A stretch of DNA of 32,000 nucleotides from Blattabacterium cuenoti (GCA_014251975.1 CP059204.1:420001-452000); one strand, 5' to 3'. Positions 3,782 to 32,000 are shown, counted from the stretch's first letter. The notes: generated by a model not told the origin, from the letters alone. Numbers and translations are program-made.

Positions 3782-5106
3782 ATAAAAATTTTAATTATAT
3801 CCCAAATAACAATTGATATCATAATTAAACTTAAAATTATAAATCCAATAATATTACATTTTTGTGAAATTTTTTCACTTATATTTCTACCTAAAAACAT
3901 TTCCAATATAATAAAAAATAAATGACCACCATCTAGTGATGGAATAGGTAATAAATTTAAAAACGCAATCCATATAGATAATGCTCCAGTTAAACTCCAA
4001 AACAAAATCCAATTCCATTTTCCCGAAAATTCTCTTGAAACAGATAAAAAACTACCTATTTGTTTATAAGAATTAGTATTTATAATATTCTTTAAATATA
4101 ATATTTGATTTTTTATTATTTCATATAATCTAATTAATCCAATATTGATACTATCTAAAATATTATATTTATTTTTTTTAAAAGAAAAAATATTATTCAT
4201 TTGTATAAATTCTTTGAAAAAAATATTATTATATTGTTTTAAAGTGATTTTTTTTTCAGAAATAATACCATTTCTATATATACCCAATGAAATAATTTTA
4301 TTTTTATTTTTTAAAATTTTATCTATTTTATCTCTTAATTGATCAAAAAAATTAACATGATTATTATTTATACTTATTATTTTATCTCCACTTTTTAATA
4401 TTTCTTTATTATATTTTGAATTTTTTATATAATCTATAATAATTGGAATACGAGGTGTTATAAAATATTTTTCTTCATTTCTATTAAATAAATATTTTTT
4501 TTTATTATCATTTAATAATATATTTTTTATTTTTCCTTCTCTATTTATTGTTATTTTATTACTAAAAATAATTTTTTGTATAATTTCATTAAAATATGGA
4601 ACATATTTATTATCTATATATAAAATTTTGTCACCATTTTTAAATCCTATTTTTTCTCCTAAATTATTTACTTCTATACCATATTTATTTACACTATTTA
4701 GAGTTATATCATAATCACCATATTTATATAATAAATAAGAAAATATAAAAAGAGAAAATATAAAATTAAATATAATTCCTCCAGAAATAATTAAGAATCT
4801 TTTTATAGATGATTTATAATAAAACTTTAAATTATTATTTTTATTATAACTTTTATGATTATGATTTTCGAACATACCATAAATTTTTACATAACCACCT
4901 AATGGTAACCAACCAATACCATATGTTGTATCTCCTATCTTTTTTTTAAAAAGATGAAACCATAAATCAAAAAATAAAAAAAATCTTTCTACTTTAACTT
5001 TAAATAACCTAGCTAAAGTAAAATGCCCCAATTCATGAACTATTATTAATATTGATATACTAATAATAAATTGAATAATTTTAATGAATACAAATGTAAT
5101 TTTCAA
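3775..5106 (-). CDS. rseP: RIP metalloprotease RseP (site-2 protease)
   Basis: 443 aa with the zinc motif HELGHF near the N-terminus, a PDZ-like middle region and a C-terminal NLLPIPSLDGG motif. Confidence 0.85.
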   Translation of the reverse strand: MKITFVFIKIIQFIISISILIIVHELGHFTLARLFKVKVERFFLFFDLWFHLFKKKIGDTTYGIGWLPLGGYVKIYGMFENHNHKSYNKNNNLKFYYKSSIKRFLIISGGIIFNFIFSLFIFSYLLYKYGDYDITLNSVNKYGIEVNNLGEKIGFKNGDKILYIDNKYVPYFNEIIQKIIFSNKITINREGKIKNILLNDNKKKYLFNRNEEKYFITPRIPIIIDYIKNSKYNKEILKSGDKIISINNNHVNFFDQLRDKIDKILKNKNKIISLGIYRNGIISEKKITLKQYNNIFFKEFIQMNNIFSFKKNKYNILDSINIGLIRLYEIIKNQILYLKNIINTNSYKQIGSFLSVSREFSGKWNWILFWSLTGALSIWIAFLNLLPIPSLDGGHLFFIILEMFLGRNISEKISQKCNIIGFIILSLIMISIVIWDIIKIFIY

Positions 5107-7627: not shown

Positions 7628-8608
7628 TTATTTTGTAATACTTGAGCTTATAATTCTATGAAAAAAATAAGATAAAGAAATACCTGCTGCTTTTAATTGT
7701 TTTGGTAAAATACTATTTTTAGATAAAGCTGGTATTGTATTGATTTCTAAGAAATATGGTATATTGTTAACTATAATATATTCTGATCTTGATACACCGG
7801 ATAAATTTAAAATTTTATATATTTTTTTAGATATTTGTTGTAGTTTATTTTCTAAATTTTTTGATATATTCGCAGGAGTAATTATTTTTGATTCTCCAGA
7901 ATATTTTGACTCAAAATCAAAAAAATCATTTTTACTAATTATTTCTGTAATTGGTAAAACAAAAATTTTTTTATTATTAAATGAAAAAACACCTACAGAA
8001 ACTTCTATACCTGATAAAAAAGATTCAATGATAACTTCATCATCTTCTTTAAATGCATTATTAATTGCAAAATTTAATTCAATTTTATTTTTAACTTTAC
8101 TCACACCTAAACTGGAGCCAGATTTATTAGGTTTTACAAAACAAGGTATTCCAATAGTTTCTATTATTTTATTTTTACAAAATTTTTCTTTTTTATTTAA
8201 AAAAACAAACTTAGTGGTATTTATACCAAAATTATTTAAAAAAGAAAGACAATATTTTTTATTAAATGTAATACTAGAATTATAAAAATCACATCCAGTA
8301 TATGGAATATTTAACAATTCAAAATATGCTTGAAAAATACCATTTTCTCCAGGAGATCCATGAATAGCTATGAAAACACAATCAAACTTTATAGTATTAC
8401 CATATACTAAAACAGAAAAATTTTTTTTATTAATTGGATATTCTTTATTATTTTCATCTATCATAACCCACTTATTTTTTGAGACAAAAACTTTGTAAGG
8501 ATAATATTTATTTCTACATAAATTTTGATAAATAATTTTACCACTTTCTAATGAAATTACAGATTCTTTTGAATATCCCCCAACAAGAATAGCAATTTTT
8601 TTTATCAT
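7628..8608 (-). CDS. ddl: D-alanine--D-alanine ligase
   Basis: 326 aa ATP-grasp protein with motifs IAILVGGYS.E..ISL.S, HGSPGENG and LEINTIP. Confidence 0.9.
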   Translation of the reverse strand: MIKKIAILVGGYSKESVISLESGKIIYQNLCRNKYYPYKVFVSKNKWVMIDENNKEYPINKKNFSVLVYGNTIKFDCVFIAIHGSPGENGIFQAYFELLNIPYTGCDFYNSSITFNKKYCLSFLNNFGINTTKFVFLNKKEKFCKNKIIETIGIPCFVKPNKSGSSLGVSKVKNKIELNFAINNAFKEDDEVIIESFLSGIEVSVGVFSFNNKKIFVLPITEIISKNDFFDFESKYSGESKIITPANISKNLENKLQQISKKIYKILNLSGVSRSEYIIVNNIPYFLEINTIPALSKNSILPKQLKAAGISLSYFFHRIISSSITK

Positions 8609-8690
8609 TATTATTTTTTTTATTATTTTTTTATTGTTATTTTACTATAAATAAAATATAAAATACAATTTTTTTTAGTACATGTAAATT

Positions 8691-10691
8691 ATGAAATATT
8701 ACAGATATATTATTTCCATTTCTATAAATATATTAGTTTCTATATTTTTTCTTCATTTATTGACACAATCTGCATTAAAATATATTGATTCATATACGCA
8801 ACACGGAATTACTGTAACGGTACCAAACTTATATAATAATAATATACAACAATCTATATCGAAATTGAAAAAAATAGGATTAAAACATAATATAAAATAT
8901 ACGTTTGAAAATAATCCAAAATTTTCCAAATATAAAAAAGATGGTATAATATATAATTATCCATTATCCGGAGAACATGTAAAAATAGGTAGGAAAATAT
9001 GTATTTATGTAAATGTTTGCAATAAATACAACTTATTAAATAGAGATAAGTTAAGTAGAAATAAAAGAAACATATCATCAGAAGAAATTCTTAATTTTTG
9101 TAAGACTAATAAAATAGATCCAACTGATTTTACGTCCATAAATAAAAGTTTATGTAGAAAAAAAAGATATAAACGCTCTTTAAGCTATATGGATACTTTT
9201 TTTAAAAATAATAAATTAGATAAAAAAAAATCAGATGAAATAACATCTGATGAAAATAAACTTGGTACAAATAAATCAGGGGTAAAAGTAACAGTAAAAT
9301 CTGATAAAGACAAAAAAATAGATTCAGATATAATAATACCTGATGAAAATAAATTAATAACAAATAAAATAAATGTAAATAAACTAAGTAAAAGTAAAAA
9401 AAAGATTAATTCAAAAAATAAATTACAAAAAAAAAGAAAAAATAAAAAATTTATAAGAAAATATAATAAAAGAAAATTAGGAACAAATAATAAAAGAAAA
9501 TTAGGAACAAATAATAAAAGAAAATTAGGAACAAAAAGAAAATTAGAAATAATTAATCGTAATTCAAAAAAATTAAATAATAATAAAAAATATTTATATG
9601 CAAAAAAATCAGATTTAGAAAAAGCTTTAGATTCAAAAAAACCAGATTTAGAAAAATCTTTAGATTCAAAAAAATTAGATTTAGAAAAATCTTTAGATTC
9701 AAAAAAACCAGATTTAGAAAAATCTTTAGATTCAAATAAATCATATGGTAAAAAATCTAAGTTTAATAAATTAGATGAAAATAAATCATATGGTAAAAAA
9801 TCTAAGTTTAATAAATTAGATGAAAATAAATCATATGGTAAAAAATCTAAGTTTAATAAATTAGATGAAAATAAATCATATGGTAAAAAATCTAAGTTTA
9901 ACAAATTAGATGCAAATAAATCATATGGTAAAAAATCTAAGTTTAACAAATTAGATGAAAATAAATCATATGGTAAAAAATCTAAGTTTAACAAATTAGA
10001 TGCAAATAAATCATATGGTAAAAAATCTAAGTTTAATAAATTAGATGCAAATAAATCATATGGTAAAAAATCTAAGTTTAATAAATTAGATGCAAATAAA
10101 TTATATGGTAAAAAATCTAAATTTAATAAATTAAGTGTAAAAAAATCATATGGTAAAAAAACTAAGTTTAATAAATTAAATGCAAATAAATCATATGGTA
10201 AAAAAACTAAGTTTAATAAATTAAATGCAAATAAATCATATGGCAAAAAATCTAAGTTTAATAAATTAGAGACAAAGAAATCATATGGTAAAAAAATTAA
10301 GTTTAATAAATTAAATGTAAAGAAATCATATGGTAAAAAAATTAAGTTTAATAAATTAAATGTAAAAAAATCATATGGTAAAAAAATTAAGTTTAATAAA
10401 TTAAATGTAAAAAAATCATATGGTAAAAAAACTAAGTTTAATAAATTAAATGCAAATAAATCATATGGTAAAAAAGCTAAGTCTAACAAATTAAATGCAA
10501 ATAAATCAAATGATAAAAAATATAAGTCTAACAAATTAGATGCAAATAAATCAAATGGTAAAAAAGCTAAGTCTAACAAATTAGATGCAAATAAATCAAA
10601 TGGTAAAAAAGCTAAGTCTAACAAATTAGATGCAAATAAATCAAATGGTAAAAAAGCTAAGTCTAACAAATTAGATGCAAATAAATCATGA
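8691..10691 (+). CDS. single-pass membrane PASTA-domain protein with a ~540-aa Lys-rich low-complexity / tandem-repeat C-terminal extension
   Basis: The N-terminus is basic, followed by a hydrophobic helix (IISISINILVSIFFLHLL). A PASTA-like segment lies at about nt 8805-9014 (GITVTVPNL...GLKHNIKY...GEHVKIGRKICIYVN). The rest is K/N/S-rich and ends in three in-frame tandem repeat modules. TGA stop. The ORF is continuous with the repeats. Confidence 0.8.
   Translation: MKYYRYIISISINILVSIFFLHLLTQSALKYIDSYTQHGITVTVPNLYNNNIQQSISKLKKIGLKHNIKYTFENNPKFSKYKKDGIIYNYPLSGEHVKIGRKICIYVNVCNKYNLLNRDKLSRNKRNISSEEILNFCKTNKIDPTDFTSINKSLCRKKRYKRSLSYMDTFFKNNKLDKKKSDEITSDENKLGTNKSGVKVTVKSDKDKKIDSDIIIPDENKLITNKINVNKLSKSKKKINSKNKLQKKRKNKKFIRKYNKRKLGTNNKRKLGTNNKRKLGTKRKLEIINRNSKKLNNNKKYLYAKKSDLEKALDSKKPDLEKSLDSKKLDLEKSLDSKKPDLEKSLDSNKSYGKKSKFNKLDENKSYGKKSKFNKLDENKSYGKKSKFNKLDENKSYGKKSKFNKLDANKSYGKKSKFNKLDENKSYGKKSKFNKLDANKSYGKKSKFNKLDANKSYGKKSKFNKLDANKLYGKKSKFNKLSVKKSYGKKTKFNKLNANKSYGKKTKFNKLNANKSYGKKSKFNKLETKKSYGKKIKFNKLNVKKSYGKKIKFNKLNVKKSYGKKIKFNKLNVKKSYGKKTKFNKLNANKSYGKKAKSNKLNANKSNDKKYKSNKLDANKSNGKKAKSNKLDANKSNGKKAKSNKLDANKSNGKKAKSNKLDANKS
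9465..9551 (+). repeat. 24-bp in-frame tandem repeat, about 3.6 copies (NKRKLGTN units)
   Basis: aataaaagaaaattaggaacaaat is repeated identically at 9465 and 9489. A third copy starts at 9513 and then degenerates (KRKLEI). Confidence 0.95.
9603..9734 (+). repeat. 33-bp in-frame tandem repeat, 4 copies (KKxDLEK(A/S)LDS units)
   Basis: Units start at 9603, 9636, 9669 and 9702. They differ only at codon 3 (S/P/L/P) and at one A/S codon. Confidence 0.95.
9735..10688 (+). repeat. 45-bp in-frame tandem repeat, 21 full copies plus 9 nt (NKSYGKKSKFNKLDE consensus)
   Basis: Units are phased every 45 nt from 9735. Units 1-3 are identical, and units 4-8 differ from them by 1-2 nt. Sub-blocks are units 10-11 and 16 (KKTKFNKLNA), 13-15 (KKIKFNKLNV) and 19-21 (NKSNGKKAKSNKLDA). 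The array runs straight into the TGA stop. Confidence 0.95.
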
Positions 10692-10769
10692 TTAAAAAAT
10701 AAAATAAATAAAAAAAAATATTAAAATATTGTAAAAATTTTAATACAATTAATATAATAAAAAATATTA

Positions 10770-10779
10770 GGGGGGGGGG
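10770..10779. repeat. G10 homopolymer in the intergenic spacer
   Basis: attaGGGGGGGGGGtatagatc, read directly from the sequence. It is the only long G/C run I see in the window. Confidence 0.9.
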
Positions 10780-10915
10780 TATAGATCTAATTATGGGAGG
10801 ATTATATATATAATAAAATATTTTTAAAAAATTTTAATAGAAAAAAAAATCTATTTATAGTTAAACTAATTTATTATATATTTTGTAATTATTTAATAAT
10901 ATAAAATTTTATCAA

Positions 10916-11935
10916 ATGTCTATAAAAACTAGAGATTTAGTATACAAAGGGAAAACAAAAATACGAATAGATCATTTTTTAATGAACAAATTTTCTAGTA
11001 TTAGTAGAAACCAAATACAAAAAAATATTAAATTAGGGAACATATTAATAAATAATTATTGCATTAAAAAAAATAGTTTTAAAATAAATTATTTAGATAA
11101 AATAACATTTGATATTTATGTTAATAAAAAAAATTATAAGAATATTACTGCAAAAAAAATAAATTTTGATATTATATACGAAGATGAAGATGTTATAGTA
11201 ATAAATAAACCTTATGGAATAGTAGTATATCCAGGATGTGGAAATGAAGAAAATACATTAATTCATGGGATAAAATATTTAAATAAAAATTTTGATAATC
11301 TATATAGAGGAGGTATAATACATAGATTAGATAAAGATACATCAGGTTTATTAATAATAGCAAAAAACAAATACTCACAAGAATATTTGTCTAAACAATT
11401 TTATTACAAAACAATTTATAGAAAATATATAGCTTTAATTACAGGTGATTTATCAAATGAAAAAGGTACTATTTCTGGATTTATTGGAAGAGATCCTAAA
11501 AATAGAAAAAGAATGACTGTTTTTAATAGAAAAAAAAATAAAATATATAATGGTAAATATTCTATAACACATTATAAAGTACTAAAAAGATTTAATTATA
11601 TAACTTATATATCTTGTAAATTAGAAACTGGAAGAACTCATCAAATTAGAACTCATTTTAAATATATAGGACATCCATTATTTCAAGATTCAAAATATGG
11701 TGGTAATTACGAAAAATTTATAAGAAAAAATAAATTAAATAAAGAATTTATATTATTTTTTAAAAATTGTTATAATACAATGAATAGACATGCATTACAT
11801 GCAAAAAATATATCTTTTATTCATCCAAGAATAGGAAAATGTAGTTTTTCTTGTCCAATACCAAATGATTTTAAAACTATTTTAATAAAATGTAAAAAAA
11901 AATTCTATAATAAAATTCCATGCAAAATTATATAA
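10916..11935 (+). CDS. rluD: RluA-family 23S rRNA pseudouridine synthase (RluD-like)
   Basis: 339 aa with an N-terminal S4-like segment, the catalytic motif HRLDKDTSGLL and GRTHQIRTH. Confidence 0.9.
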   Translation: MSIKTRDLVYKGKTKIRIDHFLMNKFSSISRNQIQKNIKLGNILINNYCIKKNSFKINYLDKITFDIYVNKKNYKNITAKKINFDIIYEDEDVIVINKPYGIVVYPGCGNEENTLIHGIKYLNKNFDNLYRGGIIHRLDKDTSGLLIIAKNKYSQEYLSKQFYYKTIYRKYIALITGDLSNEKGTISGFIGRDPKNRKRMTVFNRKKNKIYNGKYSITHYKVLKRFNYITYISCKLETGRTHQIRTHFKYIGHPLFQDSKYGGNYEKFIRKNKLNKEFILFFKNCYNTMNRHALHAKNISFIHPRIGKCSFSCPIPNDFKTILIKCKKKFYNKIPCKII

Positions 11936-18298: not shown

Positions 18299-18853
18299 AT
18301 GGAAGAAATAAATCAAATAACATATTTTTGTAAAAAAAAAATGAGATATGTTTTAAATAATCTTTACAAAGAAATTCATCATATTAGGATAGGGAGCCGC
18401 TCTATTGCTGCTCTTTTGGAAAAAATAAAGGTTAAATGTTATGATACTAAATTATTTTTACCTGAAATATCTACTATAACAATAATTGATAATATGAATA
18501 TTACTATTCAACCATGGGATATATCTATAATTTCAAATATTGATAAAACAATTATTAATGAAAATTTAGGTATCGTACCTACTAATAATGGTAAATTAAT
18601 TCATATAAAAATTCCTATAATTACAGAAGAAGGTAGAAAAATTTTAATAAAAAAAATAAAAAAATTAACAGAGTTATCCAAAATTCTTATAAGAAACATA
18701 AGAAAAAAAAGTAAACAAAGTATAAAAAAATTAAATATATCTGAAGATTTATGTAAAACAAGTGAGAATAAAATTCAAAATATAACTACAGATTATATAA
18801 AAAAAATAGATTTTTTTTTTCTTAAAAAAGAACAAGAAATACTAAGAATTTAA
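18299..18853 (+). CDS. frr: ribosome recycling factor
   Basis: 184 aa. Position directly after pyrH, length and pattern (ITIQPWD, PIITEEGRK, IRNIRKK) all fit Frr. Confidence 0.9.
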   Translation: MEEINQITYFCKKKMRYVLNNLYKEIHHIRIGSRSIAALLEKIKVKCYDTKLFLPEISTITIIDNMNITIQPWDISIISNIDKTIINENLGIVPTNNGKLIHIKIPIITEEGRKILIKKIKKLTELSKILIRNIRKKSKQSIKKLNISEDLCKTSENKIQNITTDYIKKIDFFFLKKEQEILRI

Positions 18854-30236: not shown

Positions 30237-30819
30237 ATAATTAGAATTTATAAGTAATAACTAATTATTTTAAATAAAAATTTGTATTGTTTGTATATTT
30301 TAATTATTATTTAGAATAAAAATTATAATTTATCATTTTATCATTACATTTTATATAAATTACATTATTAACAAAAATATTCATATTTTTTTTTAATTTA
30401 GAACTAGAAATTTAACTATACAAAATTAATATTTTTAATATAAAGTATAAAAAAGTATAATTAATCTCATAAATATTATAAATATATTATCATTATTAAA
30501 TTTTACTTATTTTTTTTATTTTAATAAAAAATTTTTTCTATCACTTAACTTTATATCACTTAACTAATACAAAAAATTATCAACTTTTATAAAAATTTTT
30601 ACAATAGAATAATAAAATATTGTGAAGTGAAGTTTTTTCATAAAAAATTCTATTCAATTACAAATAAAATTAAATTTTATACAAAATGTACATAGTAGTA
30701 TAAATTCTATAGTAAATTTACCTATATTAGAAAGTATATTTTAGACCATTACATAATGGACATTCCATAATGGAACTATATAAAAATAAAATTATAAAAA
30801 GATTTACTTGGTAAGTTTT

Positions 30820-32000
30820 ATGGATATTATTAAAAATGTTTATAGTATATATACTATTTCTAGTGGTATAGAAATAGATAGTAGAAAAGTAAAAAATGGT
30901 TCAATTTTTTTTTCTTTAAAAGGAAAAAGATTTAATGGTAATAAATTTGCATCAGAAGCTATTTCAAAAGGTGCTATATTATCTATTATAGACGATAAAA
31001 AATATTTTTTTTCATGTAATAAAAAAATGATATTTGTACATGATTCATTATTATTTTTACAAAAATTAGCAATGTATCATAGATATAAAAATAAAAATAT
31101 CCCTATTATAGTTATAGCTGGAAGTAACGGTAAAACAACAACAAAAGAATTAATAAAAGAAATTTTAAAAAAAAAATATAATAAAGTTCATTTTACTAAA
31201 GAAAATTTTAATAATCATATAGGTATTCCATTAACTATACTTTCTATATCTAGAAATACTCAAATATCTGTTATAGAAATAGGAGCTAATCATAAAAATG
31301 AAATAAAAAATATGTGCAACATAGTTTATCCTAATTATGGTTATATTACAAATTTTGGTAAAGCTCATTTAGAAGGATTTTTAAGTGAACAAGGTGTAAT
31401 TACTAGTAAACTAGAATTATATAATTTTTTAAGAAAAAAAAATGGATTAGTATTTATAAATGGTGATGATCCAATACAAAATATAAACAGTATATATATG
31501 AAAAAATTTATTTTTTCATCATATAAAGATCAAGTATCAGATATAAAATTTAAATATTTTTTTAACTCAATAGGAAAAAATTTGAAAAAATCTTTTTTAC
31601 TATTTAATAATATAAAAATTATTTCTCCTCTTATAGGGGATTATAATTTATATAATATCGCTGCATCTGTAACTATTGGTATTTATTTTAAAGTATCTTT
31701 AATAGATATTAAAAATGCTGTAGAGAAATATATACCAAATAACTATAGATCTCAAATTATAAAAAAAAAAAATAAAAAAATTTTTTTAGATTGTTATAAT
31801 GCAAATCCTACTAGTATGATTAAATCACTAAATTTTTTCGTTAATAATATTAATGGTAAAAAAATAATTATATTAGGAGATATGTTAGAATTAGGGAAGT
31901 ATTCCATTGAAGAACATGAAAAAATAATATTTTTTTTAATGGGGAAAAATATTATATCTTACTTAATAGGAAAAAATTTTTTTTATAGTAAAAATATTAA
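30820..32000 (+). CDS. murF: UDP-N-acetylmuramoyl-tripeptide--D-alanyl-D-alanine ligase, N-terminal ~393 aa (3' end lies outside the window)
   Basis: It is absent from the ORF track because no stop is reached. My own translation from the ATG at 30820 gives MDIIKNVYSI...IDSRKVKNGSIFFSLKG.RFNGNKF...AGSNGKTTTKE...DCYNANPTSM...LGDMLELG, which carries Mur ligase P-loop and MurF motifs. Confidence 0.85.
   Translation, partial: MDIIKNVYSIYTISSGIEIDSRKVKNGSIFFSLKGKRFNGNKFASEAISKGAILSIIDDKKYFFSCNKKMIFVHDSLLFLQKLAMYHRYKNKNIPIIVIAGSNGKTTTKELIKEILKKKYNKVHFTKENFNNHIGIPLTILSISRNTQISVIEIGANHKNEIKNMCNIVYPNYGYITNFGKAHLEGFLSEQGVITSKLELYNFLRKKNGLVFINGDDPIQNINSIYMKKFIFSSYKDQVSDIKFKYFFNSIGKNLKKSFLLFNNIKIISPLIGDYNLYNIAASVTIGIYFKVSLIDIKNAVEKYIPNNYRSQIIKKKNKKIFLDCYNANPTSMIKSLNFFVNNINGKKIIILGDMLELGKYSIEEHEKIIFFLMGKNIISYLIGKNFFYSKNI

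Follow-up and report, generated by a model that had tools for sequence, protein, structure and literature searches.

A polycationic repeat tail on the ddl-linked PASTA protein of Blattabacterium, most likely the extreme of a genus-wide hypervariable tail

The closest described counterparts of the gene discussed here are an uncharacterised family of membrane-anchored PASTA proteins encoded next to ddl in Blattabacterium and other Bacteroidota and, for its single folded domain, the PASTA regions (PF03793) of PknB, PrkC, StkP and PBP2x. We analysed a 32,000-nt stretch of the genome of Blattabacterium cuenoti, an endosymbiont of cockroaches (GCA_014251975.1, CP059204.1:420001-452000; hereafter the window), in which a gene between ddl and rluD (Table 1) encodes a member of the ddl-linked family with a very long, repetitive C terminus. 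The window protein shares with this family a transmembrane (TM) anchor and first PASTA module (E 2e-31), the ddl-rluD position and a low-complexity C-terminal tail. It differs in retaining one of the usual two to three modules, in a tail of 556 aa (8-155 aa as annotated elsewhere) with a net charge of +136 (-6 to +18 elsewhere) and a K/N/S rather than K/E/D composition, and in that the motif KELLDxLIQ, with which the tails of orthologues begin, is not detectable in it. Most likely, the tail in the window represents the extreme end of a repeat tail that is hypervariable across the genus, combined with erosion of the folded part of the protein.

The window probably derives from the 511-kb Blattabacterium of Euphyllodromia sp., a genome that is the smallest of 67, is without 130 genes and has the highest rate of gene loss (PMC8382890); the extreme genome reduction that had been presumed in a first-pass annotation, made from the sequence alone, is thereby supported. 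The DNA polymerase III sliding clamp has been lost in Blattabacterium genomes under 600 kb (PMC8382890).

Membrane anchor, PASTA module and repeat tail

The first-pass annotation described a 666-aa open reading frame (ORF) with a basic N terminus, one TM helix and one PASTA-like domain, all of which were recovered from hydrophobicity, a hidden Markov model (HMM) of orthologues and an AlphaFold2 model. No hydrophobic segment was found past aa 40, and the charges on either side of the helix (MKYYRY, +2, before it; net 0 over the 15 residues that follow) favour an N-in orientation. By Pfam the domain falls short: PF03793 scores 16.6 bits on the full-length protein and 18.4 bits on aa 1-130, below the gathering score of 23.2, while ten orthologues or relatives score above it (25.6-76.8 bits). 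NCBIfam returned nothing more than a weak match to the PASTA region of Stk1-type kinases, and a sequence search of the PDB a marginal match to the PASTA region of an S. aureus kinase (E 0.64). Positions 1-120 of an HMM built on the core of 50 orthologues align to aa 1-124 (E 2.3e-31), and AlphaFold2, run with an alignment of 40 sequences, predicts a long helix followed by an alpha/beta domain with a predicted local distance difference test score (pLDDT) of ~90 for aa 1-110. The top 29 Foldseek matches of this model in the PDB are all PASTA domains (among them 3py9, 5e10, 5nod, 3ouv and PBP2x), and the matches from PrkC, PknB, StkP, PBP2x and PBP1 superpose with a root-mean-square deviation (rmsd) of 1.6-2.9 Å over ~70 columns and a target TM-score of up to 0.80. 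The residues invariant in the family along the TM helix and first module are intact (T36, H38, P45, L64, P91, G94, K98, G100 and R101). The front end, as modelled, is a membrane-anchored PASTA module, putatively extracytoplasmic behind an N-in signal anchor.

What is not found is the remainder of the two-to-three-module architecture (core ~265 aa). PASTA modules 2-3 (~145 aa; HMM positions 121-267) were undetectable by HMM and tblastn both in the protein and in the six frames of 8600-10950, so that the history of the gene is not the simple gain of a tail that had first been supposed. Long tblastn alignments to the orthologue P0001 were considered as remnants of these modules and rejected as compositional, having arisen with composition correction switched off.

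The tail spans aa 111-666 (556 aa, ~1.67 kb), is rich in K, N and S and is predicted to be disordered. Beyond weak helices at aa 115-160, the model has no secondary structure and a pLDDT below 50 from aa ~160 to 666, in line with the disordered extension anticipated earlier. The non-periodic segment at the start of the tail, which occupies the position of the lost modules 2-3 as well as that of the tail start, has pLDDT below 65 and mostly below 40, and contains two weak arrays by Tandem Repeats Finder (TRF) at 9213-9260 and 9343-9403. Three in-frame repeat modules follow, as first described and as both TRF and translation bear out (Table 1), the longest of them reported by TRF as 21.4 copies at 9726-10689 with 94% matches and 0% indels. 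The 11-aa unit is charge-neutral, again as proposed, and each of the 21 full 45-nt units is strongly positive, with a net charge of +3 to +6 rather than the +3 to +5 originally estimated. The whole protein contains 184 Lys and has a net charge of +147, to which the tail contributes +136 (30.8% Lys, pI 10.3). Every array in the window with a TRF score of at least 100 lies within this gene, except for a marginal one at 18713-18806 (score 100, 2.2 copies), and nothing comparable with a score above 100 was found elsewhere in the window or in the sequences L001 and L080.

Within the 45-nt array the units fall into ordered subfamilies (1-8, 9-16 and 17-21), with 19 variant sites. There is no difference among units 1-3, and at most two positions vary over the 360 nt of units 1-8; the copy number of the array is uncertain because these units are nearly identical in a short-read assembly.

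The tail frame is continuous with that of the conserved PASTA module and stays open through the end of the array. It has no in-frame stop in the 147 non-repetitive codons of 9021-9461, against 19 and 34 in the remaining two forward frames; over 20,000 dinucleotide shuffles of this segment the mean was 16.1 stops, and no shuffle fell below 4. This lack of stops, together with the continuity with the PASTA frame, argues that the sense ORF is maintained as a coding frame, or has ceased to be so only very recently. Openness across the repeat array itself proves little, since one antisense frame is equally open. With periods divisible by three, no frame-breaking indels and a continuous frame, the array has the appearance of a coding tandem repeat rather than a non-coding satellite.

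The first-pass annotation knew of no described function for such a tail, and our searches are consistent with this: no homologue of the tail was present among the best 8,000 candidates from 5.8 billion proteins, and no known domain was recognised in it. Word-indexed homology searches, whether by aa 1-130 or by the whole protein, returned nothing, metagenome contigs scanned for exact occurrences of the unit pattern yielded 0 matches, and megablast of a plasmid collection gave no match. Membership of the HC2 family (PF07382) was considered and rejected, the match (18.2-18.4 bits, E ~0.003, against a gathering score of 40 bits) being confined to the Lys-rich repeats.

Repeat tails at the same locus across Blattabacterium

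With aa 1-130 as query, exhaustive searching by phmmer brought up 87 relatives, the best of which (P0001, 6e-17, followed by P0002 and P0003) are all from Blattabacterium cuenoti. A profile search found ~50 Blattabacterium orthologues, among those with public names WP_185873226.1 (P0001) and BLBBGE_125 of strain Bge (P0096), with annotated lengths of 263-404 aa, several of which are shortened by assembly gaps (one such protein has at least 505 aa). A 204-aa orthologue lies between ddl and rluD in a Flavobacterium metagenome-assembled genome, and of 79 ddl loci from Bacteroidota, 66 encode a family member of 109-305 aa no more than ~4 kb from ddl. By sequence and by position, the window gene is shown to be an orthologue of a phylum-wide, ddl-linked, membrane-anchored PASTA protein. 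Relatives are much shorter, as had been stated in the first-pass annotation, but its estimate that the gene had roughly tripled in size holds only against free-living Flavobacteriia; against its own genus the gene has roughly doubled.

The core of the Blattabacterium orthologues (~265 aa) consists of the TM helix, three PASTA-like modules and the short KELLDxLIQ motif, after which each strain carries a tail of its own, usually an in-frame tandem repeat. Among the repeated units are (KKGEE)n, (KKPEE)n, (EEKDFKKQT)n, (KEKEEKI)n, (NEKKDLK)n, (NNKKKDLD)n, (GKNEE)n and a 21-aa K/N/S unit present three times. Tails are strongly periodic in 20 of the 50 orthologues, and ~10 more have two to three copies of a unit; the annotated tails of other strains have a median length of ~50 aa and units of 5-29 aa. 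The claim that the tail is lineage-specific therefore stands for its unit sequence, but not for the presence of an in-frame repeat tail on this gene, which is genus-wide. The window protein, which has the low-complexity tail of its relatives, is an outlier among them in length and charge. Three features are peculiar to it: its tail is about ten times as long as the median, the polyampholyte of other strains has given way to a polycation, and PASTA2-3 are lost. The tail of P0001, from a 571-kb genome, is intermediate (+18 over 88 aa). When tested for a shared origin with the 63-nt unit of P0001, the 45-nt unit gave no significant result (P ~0.15, with codon shuffles as reference).

The same is seen in DNA. 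The P0001 locus has a 63-nt array (3.0 copies, 98% matches), and further strains have arrays of 27 nt (15.8 copies, 93%) and 15 nt (18.5 copies, 96%) at this position. In CP059211.1 (L081, 3745-4628) a 27-nt array of 100% identical units is interrupted by Ns at 4067-4187, with 11.9 copies before and 16.3 after the gap; its tail has at least 28 units and at least 254 aa, and the annotation splits the gene into a 'partial' protein (P0111) and a distinct ORF of 150 aa. Of the 50 Blattabacterium orthologues, eight bear the flag 'partial' and stop within a repeat, and the locus is a recurrent problem of both assembly and annotation.

Strains whose cores are 90-96% identical differ in repeat unit and in tail length; the tail therefore turns over much faster than the folded core. 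In one clade the flank pair TSKELLDQFIQIK ... NSNCCKTRSKRNSH surrounds differing repeats. Among P0126, P0134, P0135 and P0136, with cores 89-95% identical, the conserved flanks read TSKELLDQFIQIK ... (E)NSNCCKT(R/K)SKRNSH and the units between them are (NQDLKNEVK)n, (NEDLK/KKDFK)n, (EEKDFKH)n and (GKNEE)n; in this clade the variable array thus lies between two preserved in-frame ends. Taken together, the sequences show the C terminus of the protein behaving as a genus-wide hotspot at which in-frame repeats arise, amplify and are replaced. No paper in the library searched pairs Blattabacterium with 'PASTA domain', none was found that mentions the repeat tail, and the hypervariable tail across the genus is apparently undescribed.

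Low-complexity tails also occur in free-living relatives. As a separate observation, P0004, P0009 and P0013, which are of ordinary composition and presumably come from free-living Flavobacteriia, share a C-terminal '...IIE' after an acidic, Ser-rich low-complexity tail. This ending, which Blattabacterium tails do not have, may be a conserved C-terminal motif.

Origin and possible function of the tail

We think it rather probable that the tail is a translated, weakly constrained, disordered periplasmic segment, lengthened by slippage during replication at an extreme AT bias. Arrays would expand when the purine-rich coding strand of the tail (A 52-64%) slips or exchanges unequally, and these would be tolerated because the tail would be a hydrophilic, disordered periplasmic extension of a kind that could accept almost any hydrophilic sequence. 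In the most eroded lineage (511 kb, ~18-20% GC, no sliding-clamp gene) PASTA2-3 would have decayed or been deleted, and successive amplifications of 24-, then 33-, then 45-nt units would have inflated the tail to its present length, with a high mutation rate and the loss of the sliding clamp plausibly aggravating slippage. AT pressure on the A-rich strand would favour AAA and AAT codons, and selection may have kept the segment merely open, hydrophilic and perhaps basic, such that a K/E polyampholyte could become a K/N/S polycation. The protein is probably still made, its residual job being the role of the TM helix and PASTA1 near peptidoglycan synthesis, and the tail would be at most a non-specific spacer or electrostatic tether and not a new sequence-specific device.

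The variation among the 21 units is consistent with such weak constraint. It can be explained by a minimum of 3 synonymous and 16 nonsynonymous events (19 in all), which at a neutral synonymous fraction of 0.19-0.28 correspond to a ratio of nonsynonymous to synonymous rates (omega) of ~1.3-2, not significantly different from 1; the comparison among units, put forward in the first-pass annotation as a check, thus lends no support to a sequence-specific function. The absence of stops in the array is uninformative in this respect, there being only ~19 events and 4-8% of changes giving stops. Unit variation looks neutral, and the sequence of the tail is probably under weak constraint. The charge of the tail exaggerates a genome-wide basic drift, because every other protein of the window is already basic (22 neighbours, being the other ORFs of at least 100 aa; pI 8.6-9.9, pooled Lys 12.6%, Ile 14.6%). 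These neighbours use AAA for 995 Lys codons and AAG for 39; the higher use of AAG in the tail (25 of 171 Lys codons) follows from one AAG codon having been copied along with the 45-nt unit.

Several observations weigh against a tail so loosely constrained. Lys in the tail reaches 2.4 times the level of the local proteome and Ile falls from 14.6% to 3.2%, and because Lys is enriched and Ile depleted relative to the neighbours, AT bias alone does not explain the composition. The five Lys columns of the 45-nt unit are invariant, all 16 nonsynonymous events falling in the other ten codons. The probability of this is 0.001 if mutation is uniform, and rises to 0.014 and 0.08 if GC-site biases of 5-fold and 20-fold, respectively, are assumed. 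All seven arrays from five strains have periods divisible by three (24, 33 and 45 nt in the window; 15, 27, 27 and 63 nt elsewhere) with 0-1% indels, and the 147 non-repetitive codons are open where ~16 stops are expected. Some tail is kept in every orthologue, a low-complexity tail being present in free-living relatives as well, and 1.67 kb of tail has been retained by a genome that lost 130 genes. Strongly polycationic segments are moreover poor Sec substrates, and export of the tail is not assured.

Much of this would suit a tail selected for length or charge, acting as a periplasmic spacer or as an electrostatic tether that binds anionic peptidoglycan, phospholipid or lipopolysaccharide. 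Such a tail would replace the peptidoglycan contacts of PASTA2-3 or set the spacing of the envelope, with slippage serving as a means of tuning, as in size-variable repeat proteins. The maintained frame of the non-repetitive tail, the periods in multiples of three, the invariant Lys columns and the presence of a tail in all ~50 orthologues and in free-living relatives agree with this, as do the preservation of both flanks around different repeats in one clade and the coincidence of PASTA2-3 loss with the tail that is both the longest and the most cationic. The retention of murA and ddl in the window makes continued peptidoglycan synthesis probable. Among strains, however, neither unit sequence nor unit length (5-29 aa), tail length (8-155 aa or more) or charge (-6 to +18, against +136) is conserved; omega among units is about 1 or higher, arrays of 100% identical units imply very recent and probably transient expansions, and Sec export of a chain of +136 may be difficult. 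We consider a selected spacer or tether the main alternative, though on the whole an unlikely one. Its more ambitious form appears to us quite doubtful: a fast-evolving, disordered, charged 'brush' or tether throughout the genus, whose length and charge slippage would retune under selection at the interface of envelope and host membrane, and in which electrostatic envelope binding by a polycation would have replaced PASTA2-3 in the most reduced strain. A role as decoy or sink for host cationic peptides, which the first-pass annotation also entertained, would suit a polycation poorly on electrostatic grounds.

A weakly constrained but translated tail has also to be set against a gene in decay, in which the TM helix and PASTA1, or nothing at all, would be functional and the 556 codons would be an uninterrupted remnant with runaway repeats, poorly translated or not translated. 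The loss of PASTA modules 2-3, a PASTA1 under the Pfam threshold, omega of about 1 among units and the highest gene-loss rate in the lineage all point in this direction. So does the absence of the 666-aa product from the protein collection in which the ddl and rluD products of the same genome are present, which would fit a gene without an intact coding-sequence annotation. Yet the invariant residues of the TM helix and PASTA1 are intact and their fold is predicted at pLDDT ~90, 147 non-repetitive codons hold 0 stops against ~16 expected, and no frameshift has occurred over 2 kb despite 20 A-runs of at least 7 bases. We regard decay as decidedly improbable.

That the array, or its size, is an artefact of short-read assembly seems very improbable indeed. 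The near-identity of units 1-8 and the identity of units 1-3, the N-gap inside the array of another genome at this locus, the 8 of 50 orthologues that end as 'partial' inside the repeat and an odd run of ten G residues 80 nt downstream of the array are what such an artefact might leave. The ordered subfamilies with their 19 variant sites nevertheless indicate a real array that has had time to diverge, and four further strains, each assembled independently, have in-frame arrays at this position, so that doubt touches the copy number alone and not the existence of the array. Scarcely credible, finally, is an inverted topology or failed export that would leave a cytoplasmic, Lys-rich tail as a nucleic-acid binder akin to histone H1 or Hc2, for although the extreme positive charge lies C-terminal to the TM helix and Pfam HC2 gives a sub-threshold match (18.2 bits), that match is one of composition only and far under the 40-bit cut-off, the charges flanking the helix favour N-in and the conserved PASTA fold implies an extracytoplasmic location.

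Blattabacterium genomes have been treated as structurally static and nearly free of repeats. In none of the strains examined does this hold at the PASTA locus, where tandem amplification remodels the tail of one envelope-related gene more rapidly than the core of that gene diverges. The repeat tail explains the recurrent 'partial' annotations and the assembly gap at this locus, where copy numbers from short reads are not to be trusted, and the locus offers a high-resolution marker of strains. The ~50 independent outcomes form a natural series on the evolution of disordered tails under AT pressure, relaxed selection and impaired replication processivity, and could reveal whether it matters how charged or how long a periplasmic tail on a peptidoglycan-binding anchor is. 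A functional tail would count among the rare cases in which a genome dominated by loss has gained sequence; should the brush or tether prove true, this would be the one gene that is hypervariable and evolves adaptively while the rest of the endosymbiont genome is frozen.

Locus context and comparison with known systems

The position of the gene between ddl and rluD, given in the first-pass annotation as that of a flavobacterial PASTA protein, is confirmed by relatives and by the gene order of the window: ddl (-), PASTA gene, rluD, mgtE, leuS. The order rseP-feoB-ddl(-)-PASTA-rluD-mgtE(-)-leuS is kept in other Blattabacterium strains (identical in L001 and L080), and the window order is shared by L001, L002, L080, L081, L082 and L083. 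GC content per kb ranges from 14 to 28% across the window. A scan of 8500-11000 against Rfam found no RNA family, and a promoter and terminator scan gave nothing better than shuffled sequence. The 494-aa antisense ORF across the repeats was rejected as a gene, being a by-product of a stop-free repeat frame with no conserved part, and carries a risk of mis-calling.

Table 1. Position of the PASTA gene, its parts and its neighbours in the window
Feature	Position (nt)	Strand	Remarks
ddl (D-alanine-D-alanine ligase)	7628..8608	-	divergent upstream neighbour; conserved synteny partner
Complete ORF, 666 aa	8691..10691	+	ATG start, TGA stop; orthologue of ddl-linked 'PASTA domain-containing protein'
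TM/signal-anchor helix, aa 5-29	8703..8777	+	sole hydrophobic segment; AlphaFold2 helix aa 3-36, pLDDT >90
PASTA module 1, aa 42-108	8814..9014	+	only module retained; orthologue HMM and predicted fold; Pfam sub-threshold
Non-periodic K/N/S-rich low-complexity segment, aa 111-257	9021..9461	+	decayed short repeats ENKLGTNK / ENKLITNK
Antisense ORF, 494 aa	9185..10669	-	hydrophobic repeats (LDLAFLPFDLFASNL...); stop-free antisense frame of repeat units
24-nt array, 3.4 copies (NKRKLGTN)	9463..9542	+	TRF; 96% matches
33-nt array, four clean copies (KKxDLEKSLDS)	9586..9734	+	charge-balanced; TRF gives 5.2 copies, 9586-9758
45-nt array, 21 full units (NKSYGKKSKFNKLDx and variants) plus 3 codons of a 22nd	9735..10688	+	followed by TGA at 10689-10691
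rluD-type pseudouridine synthase	10916..11935	+	downstream neighbour; conserved synteny partner

Three further observations concern the surroundings of the gene. In the 224-nt spacer between its stop codon and rluD, ~80 nt past the array, a G10 homopolymer occupies 10770-10779. This is the sole run of at least seven G in the 32-kb window of ~19% GC, where 0.28 are expected and shuffles did not match the observed count, and strain EUPOLsin lacks it in the corresponding spacer. The run could be a genuine element, or an artefact of poly-G sequencing or of an assembly join beyond an array that short reads cannot span. In CP059208.1 (L082, 2723-3774) rluD is called as two ORFs, of 135 aa (S4 domain) and 215 aa (PseudoU_synth_2), which suggests a frameshift, a sequencing error or incipient pseudogenisation. 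At the far end of the window, the sole complete ORF of at least 45 aa in the ~1.8 kb of 30237-32000 is one of 45 aa (31231-31368, minus strand), and no tRNA or Rfam family was found there; this stretch may hold a gene that runs off the window end, or eroded or non-coding DNA.

Among characterised proteins, the PASTA regions of PknB, PrkC, StkP and PBP2x are closest to the front end, on whose predicted fold (aa ~40-110) they superpose at the rmsd given above, and a single TM helix precedes the domain as it does in the kinases. The window protein differs from these in having no kinase or transpeptidase domain, in its Gram-negative (Bacteroidota) host, in sequence (7-20% identity) and in its sub-threshold Pfam score. 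For the tail, chlamydial Hc2 (PF07382) also has Lys-rich short tandem repeats of variable copy number and gives the weak 18.2-bit match; Hc2 is cytoplasmic and rich in Ala, Lys and Arg, and its likeness to the tail is compositional only.

The remaining comparisons are best taken as analogies and not as memberships. TonB, with (EP)n(KP)n, and domain II of TolA are long, charged, repetitive periplasmic segments of inner-membrane-anchored proteins, and some sister tails, (KKPEE)n in P0106 among them, resemble these; the window protein has neither the C-terminal domain of TonB or TolA nor an ExbBD or TolQR context, and its tail is Pro-free and terminal rather than linking. The Vsa and Vlp proteins of Mycoplasma, surface lipoproteins with demonstrated phase and size variation and shielding, carry C-terminal, in-frame, near-identical units that change rapidly in number with a length-dependent effect. 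Their likeness to the window protein, which would be anchored in the inner membrane, is one of array dynamics. The AT-rich genome of Plasmodium falciparum, finally, is the classical case of hydrophilic, disordered Lys/Asn inserts dominated by AAA and AAT codons, made by slippage, variable between close relatives and constrained in sequence weakly or not at all; in Blattabacterium, by contrast, the expansion is confined to one gene of an otherwise repeat-poor, structurally static genome and recurs at the same site throughout the genus.

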